Below, one piece after another: positions 13,137 to 22,868 of a DNA stretch of 64,000 nucleotides. Every line of letters begins with the position of its first letter. Position 1 is the stretch's first letter. The DNA lies in contig URQZ01000004.1 in NCBI GenBank assembly GCA_900550255.1, positions 9,481 to 73,480 on the forward strand, written 5' to 3'. The translations under genes were made by a program, and so were the position numbers. This stretch comes from an uncultured Mycoplasmatota bacterium. Lineage in GTDB: Bacteria; Bacillota_I; Bacilli_A; RF39; UBA660. The notes under the pieces are model-generated. The model was given only the letters and a program-made list of their open reading frames with translations. It was not told where the DNA came from and did no database searches.

Positions 13137-13337
13137 ATGGCTAAAAAAATATCAAGTAAAAAATCTTTATTTGGAAATAGAAGATCTCACTCACTTAGAG
13201 CTACTAGACATGCTCAAAAACCTAACTTTCAAAAAGTTACTTTAGAAAATGGTGAAAAAGTTGTAATGACTGCAAGAGAATTAAGAACTCTAAGAAAAGC
13301 AACAAAAACTGAAGTTGAAACTGAAATAGCTGCATAA
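13137..13337 (+). CDS. rpmB: 50S ribosomal protein L28
   Basis: The 66-aa protein matches the L28 pattern, e.g. 'GNRRSHSLRATRHAQKPNFQKV...ARELRTLRK'. An AAAGGAGG RBS precedes the start. Confidence 0.85.
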   Translation: MAKKISSKKSLFGNRRSHSLRATRHAQKPNFQKVTLENGEKVVMTARELRTLRKATKTEVETEIAA

Positions 13338-13346
13338 GCTATTTTT

Positions 13347-13829
13347 TTGTATATTTCTAAATTTATAAATCATAATAATAATGGTGATAATGTGAATGAA
13401 AATTTAGAAGTAATTAGCCATATCTATAAAGATTGTGATGCCTCTATTTCTTCTTTAACAACAATGTTAAAGGATTTAAAGGATAAAGATAACAAAATAA
13501 AAGAAACAACTCAAAACATCTTAAAGGGATATGAACGCTATTTAAAAGAAACTAAAAATTTATTAAAAAAAGGAAATGTTGAACCTGAAAAAATGGGATT
13601 AATACCTAAAATGATGGCCAAAATGGGTGTTGATAGAGAAGTTAAAAATGATAATAGTGATGCTTCTATGGCTAGCATGTTAATACAAGGTATTCAAATG
13701 GGTGTGTTAGATATTGAAAAAAAATTAAAACAATATGAAAAAACAATTGATAAAAAAACAATTAAATTTGTTGAAGAATTTAAAAACTTTCAACAGGATA
13801 ATATTGAAGATTTAAAAAAACATTTATAA
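13347..13829 (+). CDS. hypothetical protein; the true start may lie downstream of the first ATG
   Basis: The ORF follows rpmB by 9 nt. The protein is Lys- and Asn-rich with no recognisable motif. Confidence 0.35.
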   Translation: MYISKFINHNNNGDNVNENLEVISHIYKDCDASISSLTTMLKDLKDKDNKIKETTQNILKGYERYLKETKNLLKKGNVEPEKMGLIPKMMAKMGVDREVKNDNSDASMASMLIQGIQMGVLDIEKKLKQYEKTIDKKTIKFVEEFKNFQQDNIEDLKKHL

Positions 13830-13870
13830 AAAAACTTTATCGTTTAACTCGGTAAAGTTTTTTATTTTTT
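13829..13870. terminator. bidirectional terminator between the 13347..13829 ORF and paralog 1
   Basis: The hairpin aaaactttatcg/cggtaaagtttt is flanked by A-runs and T-runs. The same hairpin type follows each of the three paralogs. Confidence 0.6.
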
Positions 13871-14754
13871 TGAAACTGTAGAAAAGCTTTTCTATCTTCA
13901 TCATCCATATTATTTTTTTCTCGTTCTAATTCTAATATCAATTTATCTGCTTTTTTATCTTGATGTACTAAAATTAAATTTTTTATATTTTCTAATCTTT
14001 CTTTTAAATTGTTAGACATTTTGGGTTGTTCAAAAATTCCAACATAATTAATATCTTTATTTCCATTATTTTTAATATAATATTCATATGGTAATGGAAG
14101 AGATAAAAATTCAAAATCATCTTCAAAAAATTCAGTAATTTCAAGCATTCTTTCAGAAAAAAATTGTGATTTATTTTTCATTTTTTTAATTCTATATATT
14201 CGATTTAAATACAATAAAGATTTACTAAGTTTTTCCCCACCGTTTTTTATATAGTTTTCTAAATATTCACGTGCTTCTTCAACATATCTATTTTTGTAGC
14301 ACATTTTTCCTAAATAATAATTAAAAATATTGTGTTGTGTAACATACAAACCTGTTAAATAATAATCATAAGCTTCTGCCAGTTTTTCCTTTTTATATAA
14401 AATTTTAGTTTCTATATCACAATTACATTCTTTAACTAAATCACATTTTTTATAAAGTTTCTTACCTTCAGCTTGTAAAAATTTATATTGTTCTTTTTGT
14501 GATCCTGACAAATCTAAATACTTCTTTCTTTCTAAAATCATATTTTTTAAACACCTTAGTTGTCGTTTATAATTAAAAATTGGAAGAGAAGTTATTATAT
14601 AAGAATAAATATATTCAGCTTCATCTATATTAATAGGTATTAATTTATATGCATATCTAGCTAAACTAACTAAATCTAATTTAAAATCCTTATCAAAATT
14701 TTTTCTTAATATATTTATAACCATGTCCTTAGTGTATACTTCTCTATTATTCAT
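13837..14754 (-). CDS. tandem paralog 1 of an unknown protein family (about 305 aa, TPR-like helical repeats), encoded downstream of clpC
   Basis: A GGAGG RBS precedes the start. The ends shared with paralogs 2 and 3 are the N-terminal block 'ILRKNFD..FKLDLVSLARYAYKLIPINID.AEYIYSYII' and the C-terminal block 'HQDKKADK.L.ELE.EKNNM.....LQFQKNKKLYR..R'. Residues roughly 195-260 diverge. Confidence 0.7.
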   Translation of the reverse strand: MNNREVYTKDMVINILRKNFDKDFKLDLVSLARYAYKLIPINIDEAEYIYSYIITSLPIFNYKRQLRCLKNMILERKKYLDLSGSQKEQYKFLQAEGKKLYKKCDLVKECNCDIETKILYKKEKLAEAYDYYLTGLYVTQHNIFNYYLGKMCYKNRYVEEAREYLENYIKNGGEKLSKSLLYLNRIYRIKKMKNKSQFFSERMLEITEFFEDDFEFLSLPLPYEYYIKNNGNKDINYVGIFEQPKMSNNLKERLENIKNLILVHQDKKADKLILELEREKNNMDDEDRKAFLQFQKNKKLYRVKR

Positions 14755-14835
14755 AATAATTCCTCCATAATGTTTCTTATTATAATAAATATTGGTCTTT
14801 TTTTCAAGAAAAAAGACTTACTATTTTGATAAATT

Positions 14836-14870
14836 AAAAAACTCTATCGTCTAGATCGATAAAGTTTTTT
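14836..14870 (-). terminator. terminator hairpin whose loop contains the paralog 2 stop codon
   Basis: The sequence 'aaaaactctatcgtCTAgatcgataaagtttttt' holds the minus-strand stop (plus CTA, minus TAG) in its loop. An identical element lies at 15902..15935 after paralog 3. Confidence 0.55.
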
Positions 14871-15779
14871 ATTTTTTTGAAATTGCAATAATATTTGTTT
14901 CTCTTTCTTATTCATATTATTTTTTTCTTGTTCTAATTCTGATAACATTTTATCAGCCTTTTTATCTTGATGCATTAAAATTAATCTTTTTATATCTTCT
15001 AGTCTTTCTTTTAAATTAATAGATACTTCTTCTTTTATTTCAATTTTTTTTATTTGATTTTCACAAACATTTTTAACAGACTCTTCATTTTCGACTTCAA
15101 AATAAGAATCTGGCATAATCGGACAATTTTTAAATCTAAAATTATTTTCAAAAAACTTATTAATTTCAATCATTCTTTCATGAAATAATTGTGCTTTATC
15201 GTTTACTTTTTTCATTTTATATATTCCACTTAAATATAATAAAGATTTACTAAGTTTTTCTCCGCCATTTTTTACATAAATTTTGAAATAATGAAGGGCC
15301 TCATCAATACAATCATTTTTATAACATATTTTTCCTAAATAATAATTAAAAATGTTAAGTTGCGTAATATATAACCCCATCAAATAATAATCATAAGCAT
15401 TTTCTAATTTTTCTTTTTTATATAAAAGTTTAGCTTCCATATCATAATTATATTTCTTACTTAGCTTATGACTTTTATAAAAACTTCTTCCTTCATTTTT
15501 AAAAAAATTATATCTTTCTTTTTGCGATTCTGACATCCCTAAATATTTCTTTCTTTCTAAAATCATATTTTTTAAACAATTTAGTTGTCGTCTATAATTA
15601 AAAATCGGAAATGAATTAATTATATAAGAATAAATATATTCAGTTTCATCTATATTAATGGGTATTAATTTATATGCATATCTAGCTAAACTAACCAAAT
15701 CTAATTTAATTTCCCCATCAAAGTTTTTTCTTAATATATTTATAACTTTATCTTTGATACGTTTCTTCTCTTCAGTCAT
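14844..15779 (-). CDS. tandem paralog 2 of the unknown family
   Basis: A GTGGGGGA RBS precedes the start. The protein is 311 aa. Its ends match paralogs 1 and 3 and its central segment is variable. Confidence 0.7.
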   Translation of the reverse strand: MTEEKKRIKDKVINILRKNFDGEIKLDLVSLARYAYKLIPINIDETEYIYSYIINSFPIFNYRRQLNCLKNMILERKKYLGMSESQKERYNFFKNEGRSFYKSHKLSKKYNYDMEAKLLYKKEKLENAYDYYLMGLYITQLNIFNYYLGKICYKNDCIDEALHYFKIYVKNGGEKLSKSLLYLSGIYKMKKVNDKAQLFHERMIEINKFFENNFRFKNCPIMPDSYFEVENEESVKNVCENQIKKIEIKEEVSINLKERLEDIKRLILMHQDKKADKMLSELEQEKNNMNKKEKQILLQFQKNKKLYRSRR

Positions 15780-15908
15780 GATAATTCCCCCACTAAAGTT
15801 TAAATAATTATTTTTATTATAATAAATATTATGTCTTTTTTCAAGAAAAAAGAAAATACTACTTTGATAAATTAAAAATAATTATCAAACAGAACAATAT
15901 TAAAAACT

Positions 15909-16838
15909 CTATCGTCTAGATCGATAAAGTTTTTTGTTTTTTTGAAATTGCAATAATATTTGTTTATCTTCTCTATTCATATTGTTTTTTTCTCGTTCTA
16001 ATTCTAATAATATTTTATCAGCTTTCTTATCTTGATGAGCTAAAATTAACTTTTTTATAGTTTCTAATTTTTCTTCTAAATTAATGTCTACATCTTTCTT
16101 TGTATTATCTATTTCATCTTCAGAAACATTTTTAATATTATCTTCACTTTCTATTTCAAAATAGTAATCTTCTATAATTGGAATATTTTTAAATTCAAAT
16201 TCATTATCAAAAAATCTAGTAAGTTCGGTAATCATTTCAGAAAATACTTGGGGTTTATCTTTTATCTTCTTAATTTTATATATTCTATTTAAATACAATA
16301 AAGCTTTACTAAGCTTTTCACCACCATTTTTTATATATTCTTCAAAATATTCACAAGCCTCATCAATATGGCTATTTTTATAACACATTTTTCCTAAATA
16401 ATAATTAAAAATATTGTGTTGCGTAACATATAAACCAGCTAAGTAATAATCATAAGCTTCCTCTAATTTTTCTTTTCTATATAAAAGTTTAGCTTCCATA
16501 TCATAATTATACTTCCTATTTAAATTACAGTTTCTATATAGTCTTCTTCCCCTAGCTTTCAAAAAATTGTATCTTCGTTGTTCTAATCCTGATAATTCTA
16601 AATACTTTTTTCTTTCAATAATCATATTTTTTAAACAATTTAGTTGACGCTTATAATTAGAAATTGGAAATGAATTGATTATATAAGAATAAATGTATTC
16701 AGCAGCATCTATATTGTTTGGTATCAATTTATGTGAATACCTAGCTAAGCTGATTAAATCTAGTTTAAAATTATCATCAAAGTTATTTTTTAATATATCT
16801 ATAACTTTATCTTTACTATACATCTTTTCTTCAAACAT
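15909..16838 (-). CDS. tandem paralog 3 of the unknown family
   Basis: A GGAGG RBS precedes the start. The protein is 309 aa. It lies directly downstream of clpC and its terminator-like hairpin at 16860..16910. Confidence 0.7.
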   Translation of the reverse strand: MFEEKMYSKDKVIDILKNNFDDNFKLDLISLARYSHKLIPNNIDAAEYIYSYIINSFPISNYKRQLNCLKNMIIERKKYLELSGLEQRRYNFLKARGRRLYRNCNLNRKYNYDMEAKLLYRKEKLEEAYDYYLAGLYVTQHNIFNYYLGKMCYKNSHIDEACEYFEEYIKNGGEKLSKALLYLNRIYKIKKIKDKPQVFSEMITELTRFFDNEFEFKNIPIIEDYYFEIESEDNIKNVSEDEIDNTKKDVDINLEEKLETIKKLILAHQDKKADKILLELEREKNNMNREDKQILLQFQKNKKLYRSRR

Positions 16839-16910
16839 AATAATTCCTCCATAATGTTTTTTATTATAATAAATATTAAAATCTTTTGCAAGAAAAAAAG
16901 AGAAATATCA

Positions 16911-19229
16911 CTAAATTTCCACTTTTTCTTGCAATGTTTGAAGATTAATACTTACCTTTCCTTCAATTATTTCATCAATTATATAATTATCTACTTTATC
17001 CTTTATTATTTTATCTAATTTTCTTGCCCCATATTCTTTGTAATTAGATAAATTAACTATTTCATTTATAACTTTATTATTAATTTTAACATTTATATTT
17101 TTCTTTTTATATTTTTCTTTTATTGTATTTATTTTCTTACTAATTAATGTATGAATATCATCCTCTTTTAAATAATTAAAAGTAATAATGTTATCAATTC
17201 TATTTACAAATGGTATTGAAAAATTATCTTTTAATTTACTTAAAACTAAATCTTCTTCTTTTTTATTAAATCCAATATTTATATCATTAAATCCAATATT
17301 AGACGTCATTAAAATAATAACATTATCAAATCTAACGATATTTCCATTACTATCTTTTATTTTACTATCATCTAGAATTTGAAATAACAAATTAATAATA
17401 TTTGGATGCGCTTTTTCTATTTCATCTAAAATTAAAACACTATATGGTTTATTTTTTATTTCCTCTAGGATATTACGATTATCATCATAACCCACATATC
17501 CAGGAGGAGCACCTACTATTTTACTAATAGAATGTGCTTCACTAAATTCACTCATATCTAATTTAATAATATTATTTCCTGTCATACATTTACCAAATGT
17601 TTTAGCAAGTTCCGTCTTTCCAACTCCAGAAGGCCCCATAAACATCATACTATAACATTTATTACTGTCCCTAAATCCTAATTTTATTTTTTTAGCAATA
17701 TGAATTAGTTCTTTTAAAGCATTTTCTTGACCAATTATTTTATCATTTAATTTCTTTTCTAAATCTTTTATTATTTTTACATTATCATTTAATATTTCAT
17801 ATACAGGTATTTTTGTTTTTAAATGAACTACCTCAGCAACATCTTCTTTTGTAACTTCCTTTTTACTTCTATTTCTAACTTTTATTTCTAAATTATTTAT
17901 TTCATTCATAATTAGATTTTCTTTTTCTTTACATTTTGATGCTTCTTTAAAATTACTATTTAAAATATATTCTTTCTTTTTTTTCATTGTATTTGTAAGT
18001 TCTTTTTTTAGCATATTATATTTTTTGATATTTTTATTTTCTTTTAAACTTACTCTTGCACATACTTCATCTAAAATATCAATAGCTTTATCTGGTTGAT
18101 TTCGATCATAAACATATTTTTCTGATAAATCAATTATTAAATCAACAATATCATTATCAACTGTTACAAAGTGATATTTTTCATAAATAGTCTTTAATTT
18201 CATCAAAATTTCTTTAACCGTTTTTTTATCAGGAGCCTCTACTGTTACTTTTTGAAAACGACGATCTAGTGCCCCATCCTTTTCTATATATTTTTTATAT
18301 TCTGAAATAGTAGTAGCACCAATACAACGAAGTTTATTACGAGCAAGGGCTGGTTTAAAAATATTTGAAGCATCAATTGCTCCTTCAGCTCCTCCCGCAC
18401 CAACTAATGTATGTATTTCATCAATAAATAGGATTATATCATCGTTAGATTCTATTTCTTTTAAAATTTTTCTAATTCTATCTTCAAATTCACCACGGTA
18501 TTTGGTTCCAGCTACAGCTGTTGCCATATCTAAACTAATAATTCTTTTATTACGAAGAGACATTGGAACATCACCACTAACAATTAGACGACTTAATTCC
18601 TCCACTATAGCCGTCTTTCCAACGCCTGCCTCCCCAATTAAAATAGGGTTATTTTTAGTTCTTCTAGATAAAACTTCTAAAATACGTTTTATTTCAACCT
18701 CACGACCAATTACAGGATCTAATTTACCTTCCATGGCTTTCTTAGTAAGATCTACTCCTAATTCTTCAAGTAGTAATTTCTTTTTATTTTTTTTCTTTTT
18801 AGGTGTAGATATTTGAATAACAAAATCATTATATAATTCATCTATATCTATATTCATACTAAGCATTATTCTAATTGCGACACCTTCTCCTTCTTCTAAA
18901 AGGCTAGAAAAAAGATGTTCTATTTTAACTTCTCCATTATTATTCTCTTTACTATCTACAATAGCATTTTCAATTACGCGTTTTAAAAGTGGCGTATATA
19001 AAAACCATTCACTTTCTCTTTTACCTATACCAATTGTATTTATGATTTCCTCACGCATTCTATTATAATCTAAATTATAATCCTTTAATTTTTCACTAAC
19101 TATATTATCTTTTTTTAAGATTGCTAAAAGAAGATGTTCACTTCCAACATAAGGATGTTTTAAACTTGTCATTTCTTTTTTTGCCATAACTAAAACTTTT
19201 CTTGCTTCTTCTGTAAAATTTCCAAACAT
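16911..19229 (-). CDS. clpC: ATP-dependent Clp protease ATP-binding subunit, ClpC/ClpE-like class I AAA+ unfoldase
   Basis: There is an N-terminal Clp_N repeat domain and two AAA+ modules (Walker A 'GEAGVGKTA' and 'GPSGVGKTE'). An IGF tripeptide 'NIGFNDINIGF' marks the ClpP-docking loop. An AAAGGAG RBS precedes the start. Confidence 0.85.
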   Translation of the reverse strand: MFGNFTEEARKVLVMAKKEMTSLKHPYVGSEHLLLAILKKDNIVSEKLKDYNLDYNRMREEIINTIGIGKRESEWFLYTPLLKRVIENAIVDSKENNNGEVKIEHLFSSLLEEGEGVAIRIMLSMNIDIDELYNDFVIQISTPKKKKNKKKLLLEELGVDLTKKAMEGKLDPVIGREVEIKRILEVLSRRTKNNPILIGEAGVGKTAIVEELSRLIVSGDVPMSLRNKRIISLDMATAVAGTKYRGEFEDRIRKILKEIESNDDIILFIDEIHTLVGAGGAEGAIDASNIFKPALARNKLRCIGATTISEYKKYIEKDGALDRRFQKVTVEAPDKKTVKEILMKLKTIYEKYHFVTVDNDIVDLIIDLSEKYVYDRNQPDKAIDILDEVCARVSLKENKNIKKYNMLKKELTNTMKKKKEYILNSNFKEASKCKEKENLIMNEINNLEIKVRNRSKKEVTKEDVAEVVHLKTKIPVYEILNDNVKIIKDLEKKLNDKIIGQENALKELIHIAKKIKLGFRDSNKCYSMMFMGPSGVGKTELAKTFGKCMTGNNIIKLDMSEFSEAHSISKIVGAPPGYVGYDDNRNILEEIKNKPYSVLILDEIEKAHPNIINLLFQILDDSKIKDSNGNIVRFDNVIILMTSNIGFNDINIGFNKKEEDLVLSKLKDNFSIPFVNRIDNIITFNYLKEDDIHTLISKKINTIKEKYKKKNINVKINNKVINEIVNLSNYKEYGARKLDKIIKDKVDNYIIDEIIEGKVSINLQTLQEKVEI

Positions 19230-19366: not shown

Positions 19367-20542
19367 TTATACATTTATATTACCACCTAGAATATCACTT
19401 AAGTATCTCCAATATAATTCTATAAAATTGGCCTTTTTTACATCATTTTTTACAGTAACATTTACTTTATTAATTATTTTACCATTTCTTTTAACTTCAA
19501 TATCACCTAAAACTTTACCTTTTTTTACAGGAGCTTTTACTTTTTTTAGATTTAAATTATAAGTTATTTTTCCTATTTTATCTGTTTTTTTAGTAAGTAA
19601 AACAATATCCTCTTTTGGAACAATTTTAACATATTTTGATTTACCTTTTTCTACCTCTTTTTTAGCTATAACACTTTTTTTATTTATCAACTCTTCAACT
19701 TTATATTGTGCGAAAGCATAATCTAACATCGTTGATGTTTCGCTATTTCTTGTTTTAGTATCTGGTTCTCCCATGACAACCGTAATAATACGCATTCCAT
19801 CACGTTTTGCAGTTGATGTAAGACAATATCCAGCTTCCTTAGTATAACCAGTTTTTAATCCATCAACACCAGGATAAAAACGCGTTAATTTATTAGTATT
19901 AGTAAGCCATAATTCCCTTTCAGTTCCTTTTCTTAAATAATCTTCATAAGTTGATGTATATTTTAAAACACGATCATGTCTAACTAATTCTTTAGCAATT
20001 AAAGACATATCATAAGCACTTGAATAATGATTAGCATCATCTAATCCATGAGGATTTTTAAAAACAGAATCTTTTAACCCTAACTCTTTAGCTCTTTTAT
20101 TCATCATTTTGACAAATTCATCTTCTGTACCAGCAACGGCTTCAGCTAAAGCAACAACCGCATCATTTCCACTCATTATAGCAACACCTTTAAAAAGATC
20201 ATCAACGCTCATTTGTTCCCCTGTTTCAAGTAAAATTTGGCTTCCACCCATACCAGAGGCATTTTCACTTACTGTTATTTTTTGATCCCATGAAATAATA
20301 CCATCTTCGACAGCTTCAACAATCAAAAGCATACTCATCATCTTAGTCATCGATGCAGGAGGAAGTTTTTCATGACTATTTTTATCAAAAAGTACTTTTC
20401 CACTGCTAGCCTCAATCATAATAGCACTTTTCGCATTTTCAGCTAAATTAGTTGACGTTTTAACAACAGCTTTTGTTTCTGCAGCCAAAACTATTCCCGG
20501 TATAATTAATAAACAAATCATTAAACTTAAAATCTTTTTCAT
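19367..20542 (-). CDS. dacA: D-alanyl-D-alanine carboxypeptidase (PBP5/DacA-type, S11 family)
   Basis: There is a signal peptide. The SxxK motif is 'SMTKMMS', the SxN motif is 'SGND' and the KTG motif is 'LKTGYT'. Confidence 0.85.
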   Translation of the reverse strand: MKKILSLMICLLIIPGIVLAAETKAVVKTSTNLAENAKSAIMIEASSGKVLFDKNSHEKLPPASMTKMMSMLLIVEAVEDGIISWDQKITVSENASGMGGSQILLETGEQMSVDDLFKGVAIMSGNDAVVALAEAVAGTEDEFVKMMNKRAKELGLKDSVFKNPHGLDDANHYSSAYDMSLIAKELVRHDRVLKYTSTYEDYLRKGTERELWLTNTNKLTRFYPGVDGLKTGYTKEAGYCLTSTAKRDGMRIITVVMGEPDTKTRNSETSTMLDYAFAQYKVEELINKKSVIAKKEVEKGKSKYVKIVPKEDIVLLTKKTDKIGKITYNLNLKKVKAPVKKGKVLGDIEVKRNGKIINKVNVTVKNDVKKANFIELYWRYLSDILGGNINV

Positions 20543-21177: not shown

Positions 21178-22155
21178 TTGTTTATAATAAAACTAGGTGA
21201 TATTATGTATACTAAGAGAAAATTAAATTATAAACTTATCTTTACAATTATAGTTATAATTATTGCTATTGCAGCTGGAACTATAGGAATTAAAAAATAT
21301 ATTGATTATCGCAATAGTAATGAATTTAAACTAAAACAAATTGGTTATAACGAAACAGAAATAAAAGATATTACAAAATTAAAAGATGATCAAATAAAAG
21401 CTATCTTAAAGAAAAAATATAATCGTTTAAATATTAAATTTATTCGTCAAAAATATTTTATAACTAATAATCTTGATAGATATATTAAATACTATAATAA
21501 TCATAAAGATGATAAAATAAGTCATATTGTAAGTATCGTTAACGTTTGTGCGGATGAAGACTACTATGATAAAGACACCGTTAAAAAAACAGATATATCT
21601 AAAAAAGAATTAATGCTTGTAAATAAATTTAATTACTTAGATGAAAATTATGCCCCAAATGATATTGTTAAAGTTAGTATGCAATTTGCTTATGGCGATA
21701 ATGAAATCAAAAAAGAAGTATATGAAAAATTCCGTTCAATGTATAATGACGCTAAAAAAGAAGGATTATATTTAATTATAACTTCATCATATCGTGATTA
21801 TAATTTTCAAAAAGAACTATGGGATAGTTATGCTAACCAAAAAGGTGATGAATGGGCCGATAGTGTATCTGCACGAGCTGGTTATTCAGAACATCAAACA
21901 GGATATACTTTAGATATTGTTACTTATAACGCTAATATGAGTAGTTTTGAAAAAACTGACGAATTTAAATGGTTACAAGATAACGCTTATAAATACGGAT
22001 TTATTCTAAGATATCCTAAAGATAAAGAAGATATAACAGGATATTCTTATGAATCATGGCATTATCGTTACGTTGGTAAAGATGTTGCTACAAAAATTAA
22101 AAAATTAGGAATTACTTTTGATGAATATTATGCATACTTTATAGAAGGAAAATAG
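21178..22155 (+). CDS. membrane-anchored D-Ala-D-Ala carboxypeptidase, VanY-type (M15B zinc peptidase), paralog A
   Basis: There is an N-terminal TM helix. The translation has 'SEHQTGYTLD' (SxHxxGxAxD-like), 'ESWHYRYVG' (ExxH) and 'SSYRDY'. Confidence 0.75.
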   Translation: MFIIKLGDIMYTKRKLNYKLIFTIIVIIIAIAAGTIGIKKYIDYRNSNEFKLKQIGYNETEIKDITKLKDDQIKAILKKKYNRLNIKFIRQKYFITNNLDRYIKYYNNHKDDKISHIVSIVNVCADEDYYDKDTVKKTDISKKELMLVNKFNYLDENYAPNDIVKVSMQFAYGDNEIKKEVYEKFRSMYNDAKKEGLYLIITSSYRDYNFQKELWDSYANQKGDEWADSVSARAGYSEHQTGYTLDIVTYNANMSSFEKTDEFKWLQDNAYKYGFILRYPKDKEDITGYSYESWHYRYVGKDVATKIKKLGITFDEYYAYFIEGK

Positions 22156-22202: not shown

Positions 22203-22868
22203 ATGAGTGAAGAAAACTTCAAAAAATGTGTTTATATTGTTTTAGCCCTACTCATATTAGTTTTTTATACAAAGGATATTGATTTCTTTTACAAAAAAGT
22301 TAAAGATATTAAAAATCCCGATAGTTTAATGGTTCTTGTTAATAAATTAAATAGACTTCAAAGTAATTATGTACCACATGATTTAGAGCAAATTTCTCTA
22401 AATTATGCAACAAATAACAAATTTCTAAGAAAAGAAGCTAAAGAAAACTTTGAAAAACTAAGTAGTGATGCTAAAAAAATAGGTTACTCTATTATAGCTG
22501 TATCAGCTTATCGTGACTATGATTATCAAGAAAATCTTTTTAACAATTATGTTAAAGAAAAAGGCGAAAATTATGCCCTAAAATGTTCTGCAAAAGCTGG
22601 TCATTCAGAACATCAAACAGGTCTTTCAGTTGATGTTATGGGTTCTAATAACGATTATGATCAATTTGAAAAAAGTAAAGAATTTGATTGGATGAAAAAT
22701 AATTCATATAAATATGGATTTATTCTAAGATATCCCAAAGGAAAAGAATATATAACTGGTTTTAAATATGAACCATGGCATTATCGTTATGTTGGTAAAG
22801 ATATTGCCAGTATAATTTATACTGAAGGAATAACTTTAGAGGAATATTATAAAAGATATATAAAATAA
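22203..22868 (+). CDS. membrane-anchored VanY-type D,D-carboxypeptidase (M15B), paralog B
   Basis: The translation has 'SEHQTGLSVD' and 'EPWHYRYVG' with the same architecture as the upstream paralog. Confidence 0.75.
   Translation: MSEENFKKCVYIVLALLILVFYTKDIDFFYKKVKDIKNPDSLMVLVNKLNRLQSNYVPHDLEQISLNYATNNKFLRKEAKENFEKLSSDAKKIGYSIIAVSAYRDYDYQENLFNNYVKEKGENYALKCSAKAGHSEHQTGLSVDVMGSNNDYDQFEKSKEFDWMKNNSYKYGFILRYPKGKEYITGFKYEPWHYRYVGKDIASIIYTEGITLEEYYKRYIK

Follow-up and report, generated by a model that had tools for sequence, protein, structure and literature searches.

Three diverged, tandemly arranged genes lie immediately downstream of clpC in the window, the 64,000-nucleotide stretch of contig URQZ01000004.1 analysed here, which comes from an uncultured, low-GC bacterium of the human gut. 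They probably go back to tandem duplication of a single gene for a cytoplasmic TPR-repeat protein restricted to its lineage; each is laid out as a self-contained cassette, and its product would be a two-module adaptor or scaffold. The array is polymorphic in copy number between strains of the species. The TPR core of the proteins is kept under purifying selection, while an acidic linker evolves neutrally.

The tandem array and its reality

The three minus-strand open reading frames have exactly the coordinates and lengths first noted for them. Together with their context genes they are arranged as follows (paralogs and orf160 from the ORF list, clpC from the ORF list and domain scans):

13137-13337: rpmB, upstream neighbour of orf160 (context)
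13347..13829, plus strand: orf160, 160 aa, conserved, convergent with the array and 3' of rpmB (context)
13837..14754, minus strand: paralog a, 305 aa, convergent with orf160
14844..15779, minus strand: paralog b, 311 aa, the middle copy
15909..16838, minus strand: paralog c, 309 aa, the copy adjoining clpC
16911..19229, minus strand: ClpC-type AAA+ unfoldase gene, 772 aa (context)

At the protein level the paralogs are 63-69% identical (b and c 69%, a and either of the others 63-64%), and the DNA units are 77-79% identical across about 1,000 bp, which is far above chance. All of the conserved blocks quoted for the family in the first-pass annotation were found in a, b and c. The three-gene array recurs on many independent metagenome contigs and is therefore not an assembly artefact: the exact protein of paralog c was present on 105 contigs, that of b on 21 (its 90% cluster holds 83 allelic variants), and that of a on 186. 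The neighbouring ClpC contains Clp_N, two AAA modules, AAA_lid_9 and ClpB_D2-small domains, and IGF loop motifs were read directly from its translation. The protein encoded by orf160 had no family match in Pfam or NCBIfam.

Predicted expression signals of the units

The following elements were located in and around the three units:

16894..16928, minus strand: weak A/U-rich hairpin across the clpC stop codon, surrounding 92 nt at z = -0.71, not called by the terminator scan
16863..16891, minus strand: promoter-like site for c, TTGCAA-17-TATAAT
16845-16850, minus strand: ribosome-binding site for c, GGAGGA
15902..15934, minus strand: terminator-like hairpin running across the last codons of c (KKLYRSRR*), -12.6 kcal/mol, z = -4.7, with 0 of 200 shuffles as stable
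15816..15844, minus strand: promoter-like site for b, TTGAAA-17-TATAAT, 11/12 matches
about 15786-15792, minus strand: ribosome-binding site for b, G-rich
14837..14869, minus strand: terminator-like hairpin running across the last codons of b, -14.7 kcal/mol, z = -6.0
14779..14807, minus strand: promoter-like site for a, TTGAAA-17-TATAAT, 11/12 matches
14761-14766, minus strand: ribosome-binding site for a, GGAGGA
13830..13862, no strand assigned: hairpin running across the last codons of a, with A and T runs on its flanks, scored on the plus strand, z = -2.1

The spacers of 72, 129 and 89 bp are taken up by terminator, promoter and ribosome-binding site, and each unit of about 1 kb is shown to have the layout of a self-contained cassette of predicted elements: the coding sequence is preceded by a sigma-A-like promoter site and a strong ribosome-binding site, and a hairpin overlaps its end. 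The promoter-like sites of a, b and c share one register, and a TTG-17-TATAAT arrangement was also recognised by eye upstream of the orthologues in three relatives (loci L001, L007 and L017). All support for the promoter-like calls comes from this common register and these similar orthologue sites, as a promoter scan returned 61 sites against 55.9 expected from shuffles and hence no enrichment in such AT-rich DNA. The hairpin at the end of a is probably a bidirectional terminator common to a and the convergent orf160, and in L007 both of its arms carry paired changes. An inverted repeat that covers the -35 box in units a and b (GTCTTTTTTCTTGAAAAAAAGAC) was considered as an operator and rejected, given its z scores of -2.1 and -0.8 and its absence, by eye, upstream of the orthologues; it is probably an upstream T-run meeting the TTGAAAAAA box.

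A hairpin had been described as separating clpC from the first copy, with read-through from clpC as a possible source of expression. The hairpin is indeed present, but it is weak (z = -0.7 against shuffles of the 92 nt), and read-through is unneeded, each copy having its own promoter-like site.

Protein architecture

In paralog c an N-terminal helical region is followed by a TPR core and then by a linker that is acidic and predicted to be disordered; a basic module of three helices makes up the C-terminus, which ends in KNKKLYRSRR. Its two central parts map as follows:

16272..16499, minus strand: TPR core of paralog c, aa 114-189, with the invariant motif NIFNYYLGKMCYK and KNGGEKLSK
16086..16202, minus strand: variable linker of paralog c, acidic and with predicted disorder, aa 213-251, pLDDT below 50; its counterpart in a and b is the hypervariable patch

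The AlphaFold2 model of paralog c, built on a 15-sequence alignment, is all-helical with a pLDDT of 75.6, a moderate confidence. The central helical repeats reported earlier can be refined to a recognisable TPR pair, since two consecutive repeats were aligned between the family profile and consensus TPR (CTPR) proteins with an E value of 6.9e-14. Pfam TPR families matched 17 of 34 family members (best E 2e-10, TPR_2), whereas the window paralogs taken alone stayed below threshold, at 14-15 bits against a cutoff of 27. Measured against the TPR consensus of tandem 34-residue helix-turn-helix repeats with W4, L7, G8, Y11, A20, F24, A27 and P32, the family shows both the tandem sequence pattern and the all-alpha fold, wound into a right-handed superhelix around a concave groove, at an identity to solved TPR structures of only about 10-22%. 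Neither a transmembrane segment (maximum Kyte-Doolittle value 0.72 over 19 residues) nor, when the three paralogs were scanned against Pfam and NCBIfam, an HTH or catalytic domain was found, in agreement with what had been read from the letters. The TPR fold and the lack of a catalytic domain likewise support the earlier view that these are binding-type, non-enzymatic proteins.

In the CTPR alignment, F144, Y147, K150, Y153 and K154 fall on TPR positions 2, 5, 9, 12 and 13, and K117, Y120 and N142 fall on positions 9, 12 and 34. Positions 2, 5, 9, 12, 13 and 34 line the concave, ligand-binding face of TPR domains (PMC1261162). All eight residues are invariant or nearly so in the family alignments, in which the predicted concave-face residues of the TPR core are the best-conserved part of the family. 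The register of a third TPR, and hence the placement of K175, is extrapolated and lies outside the aligned part. At the other end of the protein, a [KR]N[KR]K[LI]Y motif occurs at most 12 residues from the C-terminus in 51 of 137 proteins of at least 200 aa obtained from the searches. That KNKKLY is kept solely as the coding sequence of a terminator stem was rejected, as KCKKLY in L010 stands nine codons before the stop, outside the downstream hairpin.

Variable regions and selection

Over the whole gene, dN/dS between paralogs was 0.34-0.49. It fell to 0.16-0.26 in the TPR core, indicating purifying selection, and rose to 1.1-1.26 in the linker, which evolves neutrally. With dS values of 0.49-0.64 between paralogs, all three copies are therefore old and maintained. 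The linker has a pI of 4.0-4.7, and 10-20% of its columns are identical across all three copies. A divergent stretch had been placed at residues 195-260; the divergence is real, but its true bounds are aa 213-252, and b and c can still be aligned there. A second variable patch covers aa 81-120. The proposal that the hypervariable patch determines binding specificity found no support, as the patch is predicted to be disordered with a dN/dS of about 1 and the putative TPR groove is the most conserved part.

Proposed function and comparison with known systems

The arrangement of these parts suggests that the protein would link other proteins as an adaptor or scaffold built from two modules. In its TPR groove, which is conserved, basic and aromatic, a conserved and probably acidic peptide would be bound, and the C-terminal module, on an acidic tether about 40 aa long, would recruit another partner. 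The paralogs differ in their N-terminal region and tether; the same groove is found in all three, and they therefore probably share one ligand class. The case for this role is built from the fold and the conservation pattern.

The canonical TPR pattern and fold are common to the paralogs and to generic three-repeat TPR domains, such as Hop/Sti1 TPR1/TPR2A and CTPR. Hop binds peptides via positions 2, 5, 9, 12 and 13 (PMC1261162), and the conserved lysines and tyrosines of the paralogs stand at the same positions. In contrast to these generic domains, the paralogs add N-terminal helices, a long acidic linker and a basic three-helix module ending in KNKKLY, and their family is confined to uncultured low-GC Bacilli. 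Bacillus subtilis YrrB (2q7f) is, like the paralogs, a stand-alone cytoplasmic Firmicutes TPR protein, although the match is generic (Foldseek E 0.047, 12% identity) and YrrB is without their linker and C-terminal module.

Family distribution and the link to clpC

Clustered at 50% identity, the family falls into about 164 groups, whose sources are uncultured low-GC Bacilli, a widespread human-gut species among them. Sources name its members only 'hypothetical protein', and Pfam and NCBIfam offer no model of their own for it beyond generic sub-threshold TPR matches, so that the earlier failure to recognise a described family is borne out. Scanning genomes with a profile from a nine-sequence alignment yielded 7 loci, and a metagenome scan yielded 5 more; word-indexed searches with diverse alignments added few new members, K/N-rich low-complexity words having probably saturated the candidates. 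GTDB representative genomes scanned with patterns from close relatives gave no match, and the window species may therefore be missing from them.

Genomic context, known for a minority of the 164 cluster representatives, differs between members. Adjacency to clpC occurs only where the block dacB-clpC-X-orf160-rpmB-dnaE is syntenic, that is, in the window species, in L001 (clpC, orf160, rpmB and dnaE) and in L007 (the same genes plus dacB); on the short contig of L017, clpC and orf160 are visible, consistent with synteny of the block. Relatives have one copy of the family gene at this locus; it is 33-46% identical to the window genes, as against 67-82% for ClpC, and orf160 is 67-73% identical in L001, L007 and L017. 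The first-pass annotation had named absence of conserved clpC linkage in related genomes as evidence against an association with ClpC, and such absence was found in part: linkage is kept in the close syntenic relatives and is absent near distant members at ten loci, within up to 10 kb on each side (the loci without it fall in the ranges L008-L015 and L028-L030). The family-wide adjacency, beyond general synteny, that a clpC-linked accessory gene would display was not observed. The position after clpC is inherited local synteny and provides no evidence of a dedicated ClpC partnership. As nothing links the genes to ClpC in particular, they form a lineage-specific, fairly ordinary gene family.

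These data bear directly on the suggestion that the paralogs serve ClpC as adaptors or select its substrates, in which the TPR domain would bind substrates and the linker and C-terminal module would tether them to ClpC. MecA/YpbH, the ClpC adaptors of Bacillus, and the ClpX adaptor SspB join a folded domain for binding, through a flexible linker, to a conserved docking element at the C-terminus, and the paralogs, which also stand beside clpC, may be likened to them in their succession of folded domain, disordered acidic linker and basic C-terminal module. In the window species, as in the diverged relatives L001, L007 and L017, the gene directly follows clpC on its 3' side, clpC is without a strong terminator after it, and the clpC neighbour has been kept in at least four separate lineages despite the divergence of the family gene itself, which a functional tie could also explain. 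However, the whole neighbourhood is syntenic in L001 and L007, where adjacency therefore carries no independent weight, and the distant-member loci are without clpC within up to 10 kb on each side. Each copy has its own promoter-like site, the fold is that of a TPR protein, and no paralog matched MecA/YpbH, McsA, McsB, ClpS or any other Clp adaptor family in Pfam or NCBIfam at E values up to 1. A literature search on Firmicutes found no TPR-type ClpC adaptor, returning only plant and chloroplast work or reviews. We therefore regard a ClpC adaptor role as unlikely. Slightly more doubtful still is its extended form, in which gut Bacilli with small genomes would possess a new class of tethered adaptors for ClpC: the TPR groove or the KNKKLY module would provide the docking site for ClpC, and the diverged N-terminal regions and linkers of the paralogs would each select different substrates.

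Other genomic neighbours could suggest a different association. At five loci from uncultured Bacilli (L008-L012) a homologue lies beside sigG and iagA, directly after or close to the gene scoring best as SigG (353-363 bits for three full-length genes, E down to 1e-108), and SpoIIIAH, GerE and GerM-type genes occur nearby in L001, as might be expected if the family were a sporulation or forespore-associated factor with a functional tie to SigG. Yet L008-L012 form one syntenic clade (SigG 74-91% and IagA 65-91% identical) and count as a single observation, and in L010 the gene adjoins iagA, away from sigG. Other family members adjoin cysS/hisS, ABC transporter genes or an XRE-type gene, sigG is absent from the window, and the window promoter sites are sigma-A-like, unlike the SigF/SigG promoter consensus used for comparison. 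A sporulation function thus appears very unlikely.

Within-species polymorphism

The first-pass annotation had raised the question whether homologues vary in copy number; within the species they do, strains carrying one, two or three copies of the array gene. The haplotypes comprise c-b-a, c-b-a-KilA-N, c'-KilA-N-CutA1, a c/b chimera followed by a, and c-a, in addition to a fourth allele type. We infer that this copy-number-polymorphic array was produced by recombination between units.

Tandem diverged paralogs with strain-level gain, loss and chimeras would also be expected of an immunity or anti-phage family in a defence islet, diversified by an arms race. Such a family would fit a gene that evolves much faster than its neighbours, and sister strains carry, inserted at the same spot, a KilA-N gene that matches the PADLOC candidate PDC-S22 (E 2.7e-111). 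Pseudomonas aeruginosa has three tandem PldB immunity genes, which encode Sel1/TPR-like paralogs of a polymorphic toxin system, and the window array resembles them as three tandem diverged helical-repeat paralogs. In contrast to the PldB immunity proteins, the window proteins are without a signal peptide, an adjacent toxin gene or a Sel1 match, and relatives have a single copy of the gene at this locus. Neither the three paralogs nor three further members (two long forms and one sigG-linked) had a match in PADLOC or PHROGs, which removes support from the earlier suggestion of an immunity family, and an effector or toxin partner is absent nearby. Moreover, the gene is at the locus in every syntenic relative examined and is thus core there rather than accessory; purifying selection acts on its folded parts, what varies is a disordered linker at a dN/dS of about 1 and not a structured surface, and the likely binding groove has stayed conserved instead of diversifying. 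We give a defence function slightly less credence than one in sporulation. The possibility that the paralogs are peptide-sensing TPR receptors of the RRNPP type (Rap/NprR/PlcR-like) is largely refuted and scarcely credible, as their structural score is no better than that of dozens of unrelated TPR domains, no HTH or Rap N-terminal domain was matched, although receptors of the Rap/NprR/PlcR/PrgX kind carry an HTH or three-helix effector domain at the N-terminus, and the spacers of 72-129 bp hold no ORF and leave no room for an adjacent pro-peptide gene.

Implications

Reduced-genome Bacilli may be without the classical MecA/McsB adaptors. If the paralogs proved to be Clp adaptors, the finding would gain in importance for ClpC targeting in these organisms, and strain-level change in copy number would retune regulated proteolysis; the present evidence does not require this. 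Read as diverged duplicates of a lineage-restricted TPR protein, the array extends the list of TPR families by one that is lineage-specific and uncharacterised, and it documents the clpC-rpmB interval as a small recombination hot-spot with strain-level copy-number variation, which could serve as a strain marker.

Three tandem TPR genes downstream of clpC

Three minus-strand open reading frames lie directly 3' of a ClpC-type gene in this stretch of about 25% G+C, at exactly the coordinates reported in the first-pass annotation:

13837-14754, minus strand, paralog a (305 aa)
14844-15779, minus strand, paralog b (311 aa)
15909-16838, minus strand, paralog c (309 aa)
16911-19229, minus strand, clpC-type gene (772 aa), directly 5' of the three-gene array

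The 772-aa product carries Clp_N, two AAA+ modules, AAA_lid_9 and ClpB_D2-small, with IGF loop motifs visible in the translation, which together identify it as a ClpC-type unfoldase. Protein identity between the paralogs is 63-69%, and that between their DNA units 77-79% over about 1 kb. Since the array recurs on many independent metagenome contigs and each window protein is found unchanged on 21-186 contigs (the longest of 1.05 Mb), the array is real; the contigs matching the window come from human-gut metagenomes. In agreement with the earlier description, the paralogs have no hydrophobic segment (maximum Kyte-Doolittle value over 19 residues, 0.72), and domain-family scans detected neither an HTH nor a catalytic domain.

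A conserved probable binding groove and an apparently unconstrained linker

The central helical-repeat region noted earlier is borne out by profile comparison as a genuine TPR pair. The family profile matched consensus TPR proteins (CTPR) in the PDB at E 6.9e-14 with two consecutive repeats aligned, and half of the family members scanned (17 of 34) score with Pfam TPR families, the window paralogs alone being sub-threshold. The proteins are laid out as follows:

aa 9-104, N-terminal helices
about aa 114-210, TPR core
aa 213-251, acidic linker (pI 4.0-4.7), predicted to be disordered
C-terminal end, basic three-helix module (pI about 10) ending in QFQKNKKLYRxxR

In the profile-to-CTPR alignment, K117, Y120, N142, F144, Y147, K150, Y153 and K154 fall at TPR positions 9, 12, 34, 2, 5, 9, 12 and 13, respectively, and positions 2, 5, 9, 12, 13 and 34 line the concave ligand-binding face (PMC1261162). 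Since these residues are invariant or nearly so in family alignments, the probable binding groove is conserved between the paralogs as well as throughout the family. Nei-Gojobori estimates of dN/dS between paralogs were 0.34-0.49 overall, 0.16-0.26 in the TPR core and 1.1-1.26 in the linker. The hypervariable patch, which the first-pass annotation had compared to a diversified binding surface, is thus unlike one; its dN/dS and predicted disorder are best accounted for by a tether under no constraint. The duplicates are old, as indicated by a dS between paralogs (0.49-0.64) far above that of clpC and dnaE between strains (0.04-0.08).

Candidate expression signals of the individual units

Each gene is bracketed by its own candidate signals:

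16891-16863, minus strand, promoter-like TTGCAA-17-TATAAT, unit c
15844-15816, minus strand, promoter-like TTGAAA-17-TATAAT, unit b
14807-14779, minus strand, promoter-like TTGAAA-17-TATAAT, unit a
15902-15934, hairpin at the 3' end of c (z = -4.7)
14837-14869, hairpin at the 3' end of b (z = -6.0)
13830-13862, hairpin at the 3' end of a (z = -2.1)

The promoter-like sites occupy the same register in all three units, each with a GGAGG-type ribosome-binding site downstream, and similar TTG-17-TATAAT sites were seen by eye upstream of the orthologues in three diverged relatives (L001, L007 and L017). The TTGAAA sites of b and a were the two best matches in a 6.6-kb promoter scan. In DNA this rich in A and T, the scan as a whole was not enriched relative to shuffled sequences, and the promoter evidence therefore consists of the shared register and the orthologue sites.

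Intrinsic-terminator-like hairpins are present at the 3' ends in the window and also at the equivalent 3' ends of L001, L007 and L017. Each paralog's terminal hairpin, AAAAACTTTATCG-N7-CGATAGAGTTTTT, overlaps the last codons (KKLYRSRR*), and because it is built from these codons and the stop, peptide motif and RNA stem are encoded by the same bases. In L007 the two arms of the hairpin have changed together, a K-to-R substitution being matched by a change in the 3' arm. In L010, the locus of a more distant family member, KCKKLY lies nine codons ahead of the stop and is not part of the downstream hairpin, so the peptide motif is under a constraint separate from that on the RNA stem. The hairpin after paralog a probably serves the convergent gene orf160 too. 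The hairpin said to separate clpC from the array does exist at the clpC stop but is weak (z = -0.7 for the 92-nt stretch containing it), and read-through from clpC is therefore possible, though not required.

Copy-number polymorphism within the species

Array haplotypes were compared between loci whose flanking genes are 98-100% identical, except in L026, where clpC differs:

c-b-a: window, L018-L020, L022, L023
c-b-a-KilA-N-truncated CutA1: L021
c'-KilA-N-CutA1: L002-L006, L025
c/b chimera, then a: L016, L026
c-a: L024
fourth allele type adjoining clpC (like protein P0010, 71% identical to a): L027

The single-copy haplotype retains the c-b spacer, including b's promoter-like site, and the right boundary of the KilA-N cassette is an orphan 50-bp TPR-gene 3' end with its hairpin; recombination between repeated units is therefore the best explanation of these variants.

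Chimeric alleles were observed at L016 4207-5142 and L026 3429-4361, and among the proteins in P0005 and P0002. In P0005 the N-terminal ~155 aa of paralog c are fused to the remainder of b, followed by paralog a, the product expected from unequal crossing-over, while P0002 combines parts of a, b and c on a contig of 1 kb and may have arisen in assembly. The clpC 5' half of L026 (1-1500) has no DNA-level match to the window and its downstream TPR genes are 88-100% identical in protein; the mismatch may stem from recombination within clpC or from a contig that is itself chimeric.

Further differences and conserved genes surround the array:

L002 11388-12564, L021 12401-13394, L025 1651-2824, KilA-N (289 aa) and CutA1 genes between the TPR array and orf160
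13347-13829, plus strand, orf160, conserved 160-aa protein, 9 bp after rpmB (13137-13337)
19367-20542, PBP5/DacB-type gene just upstream of clpC, near the VanY-type pair
21178-22155 and 22203-22868, plus strand, two adjacent VanY-type D-Ala-D-Ala carboxypeptidase paralogs (for these and the PBP5/DacB-type gene, Pfam labels taken from the L002 and L018 counterparts)
L002-L005 6892-7470, extra 192-aa ORF between dacB and clpC in single-copy strains

The window has no KilA-N/CutA1 cassette between 13829 and 13837, and the presence or absence of the cassette probably results from recombination between TPR 3'-end repeats. Its KilA-N gene gave a full-length match to PDC-S22, a phage-defence candidate in PADLOC (E 2.7e-111), and also matched a PHROG transcriptional-regulator family. 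The gene orf160, which has no family assignment, is probably co-transcribed with rpmB. Its counterparts in related genera show 67-73% identity, and in every case orf160 and the TPR gene converge. The 192-aa ORF, without a Pfam match and missing from the 137-bp dacB-clpC gap of the window, adds a further small indel polymorphism to this neighbourhood.

The wider family and its linkage to clpC

When 1.84 billion representatives were searched exhaustively with HMMER, 164 family clusters were found at E <= 1e-3, most of them either about 200-320 aa or about 400-540 aa long, the window proteins corresponding to the C-terminal half of the long forms. Among 137 proteins of at least 200 aa, 51 have the motif [KR]N[KR]K[LI]Y no more than 12 residues from their C-terminus, and 'hypothetical protein' is the sole name given by any source.

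Among family loci whose contexts could be recovered, the family gene has clpC as its neighbour in the window species, L001, L007 and L017; in L001 and L007 the shared gene order extends to rpmB and dnaE. The proposed clpC linkage stands for these loci but fails in 10 loci with more distant members, where no clpC was found in the examined flanks (up to 10 kb each side), and is thus explained by local synteny. An absence of conserved clpC linkage, which the first-pass annotation had named as grounds for rejecting its reading, is therefore partly borne out. Identity of L001, L007 and L017 to the window is 67-82% for ClpC, 68-73% for orf160, 67-70% for DnaE and 33-46% for the TPR gene, which by this measure is evolving much faster than its neighbours. 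The paralogs might act as ClpC adaptors, given an architecture resembling MecA or SspB and a clpC adjacency that persists in close relatives, but this is unlikely, as domain-family scans gave no adaptor-family match and the linkage is not conserved across the family.

In L008-L012 (uncultured Bacilli MAGs; e.g. L009 8285-11666), a member of 236-442 aa lies between genes for a SigG-type sporulation sigma factor and an IagA/BgsA-type glycolipid glycosyltransferase, the latter followed by an ApbE-like gene; in L010 iagA precedes the TPR gene. The remaining distant loci place the gene between cysS and hisS, or beside ABC transporter, AMP-ligase or XRE-type genes. A link to SigG or sporulation is very unlikely, since L008-L012 represent a single syntenic clade.

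Proposed function of the TPR family

An immunity or defence role would fit the copy-number variation and the neighbouring PDC-S22 candidate, but it is less probable still, because the paralogs themselves match neither PADLOC nor PHROG, no effector is present and the groove is conserved. With no adjacent peptide gene, an RRNPP receptor is extremely improbable.

While the observation made in the first-pass annotation is confirmed, its interpretation is supported in part, and the reading with the most support is that of a cytoplasmic TPR scaffold or adaptor specific to the lineage. The conserved basic-aromatic groove would bind a conserved, probably acidic peptide, and the flexible acidic tether would join the TPR domain to the conserved basic C-terminal docking module. 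Unequal recombination would have amplified the gene into self-contained cassettes, which appear partly redundant because strains lose or fuse copies. Such tandem copy-number polymorphism is interesting rather than unusual; what is new is an unnamed member family within the very well-known TPR proteins.
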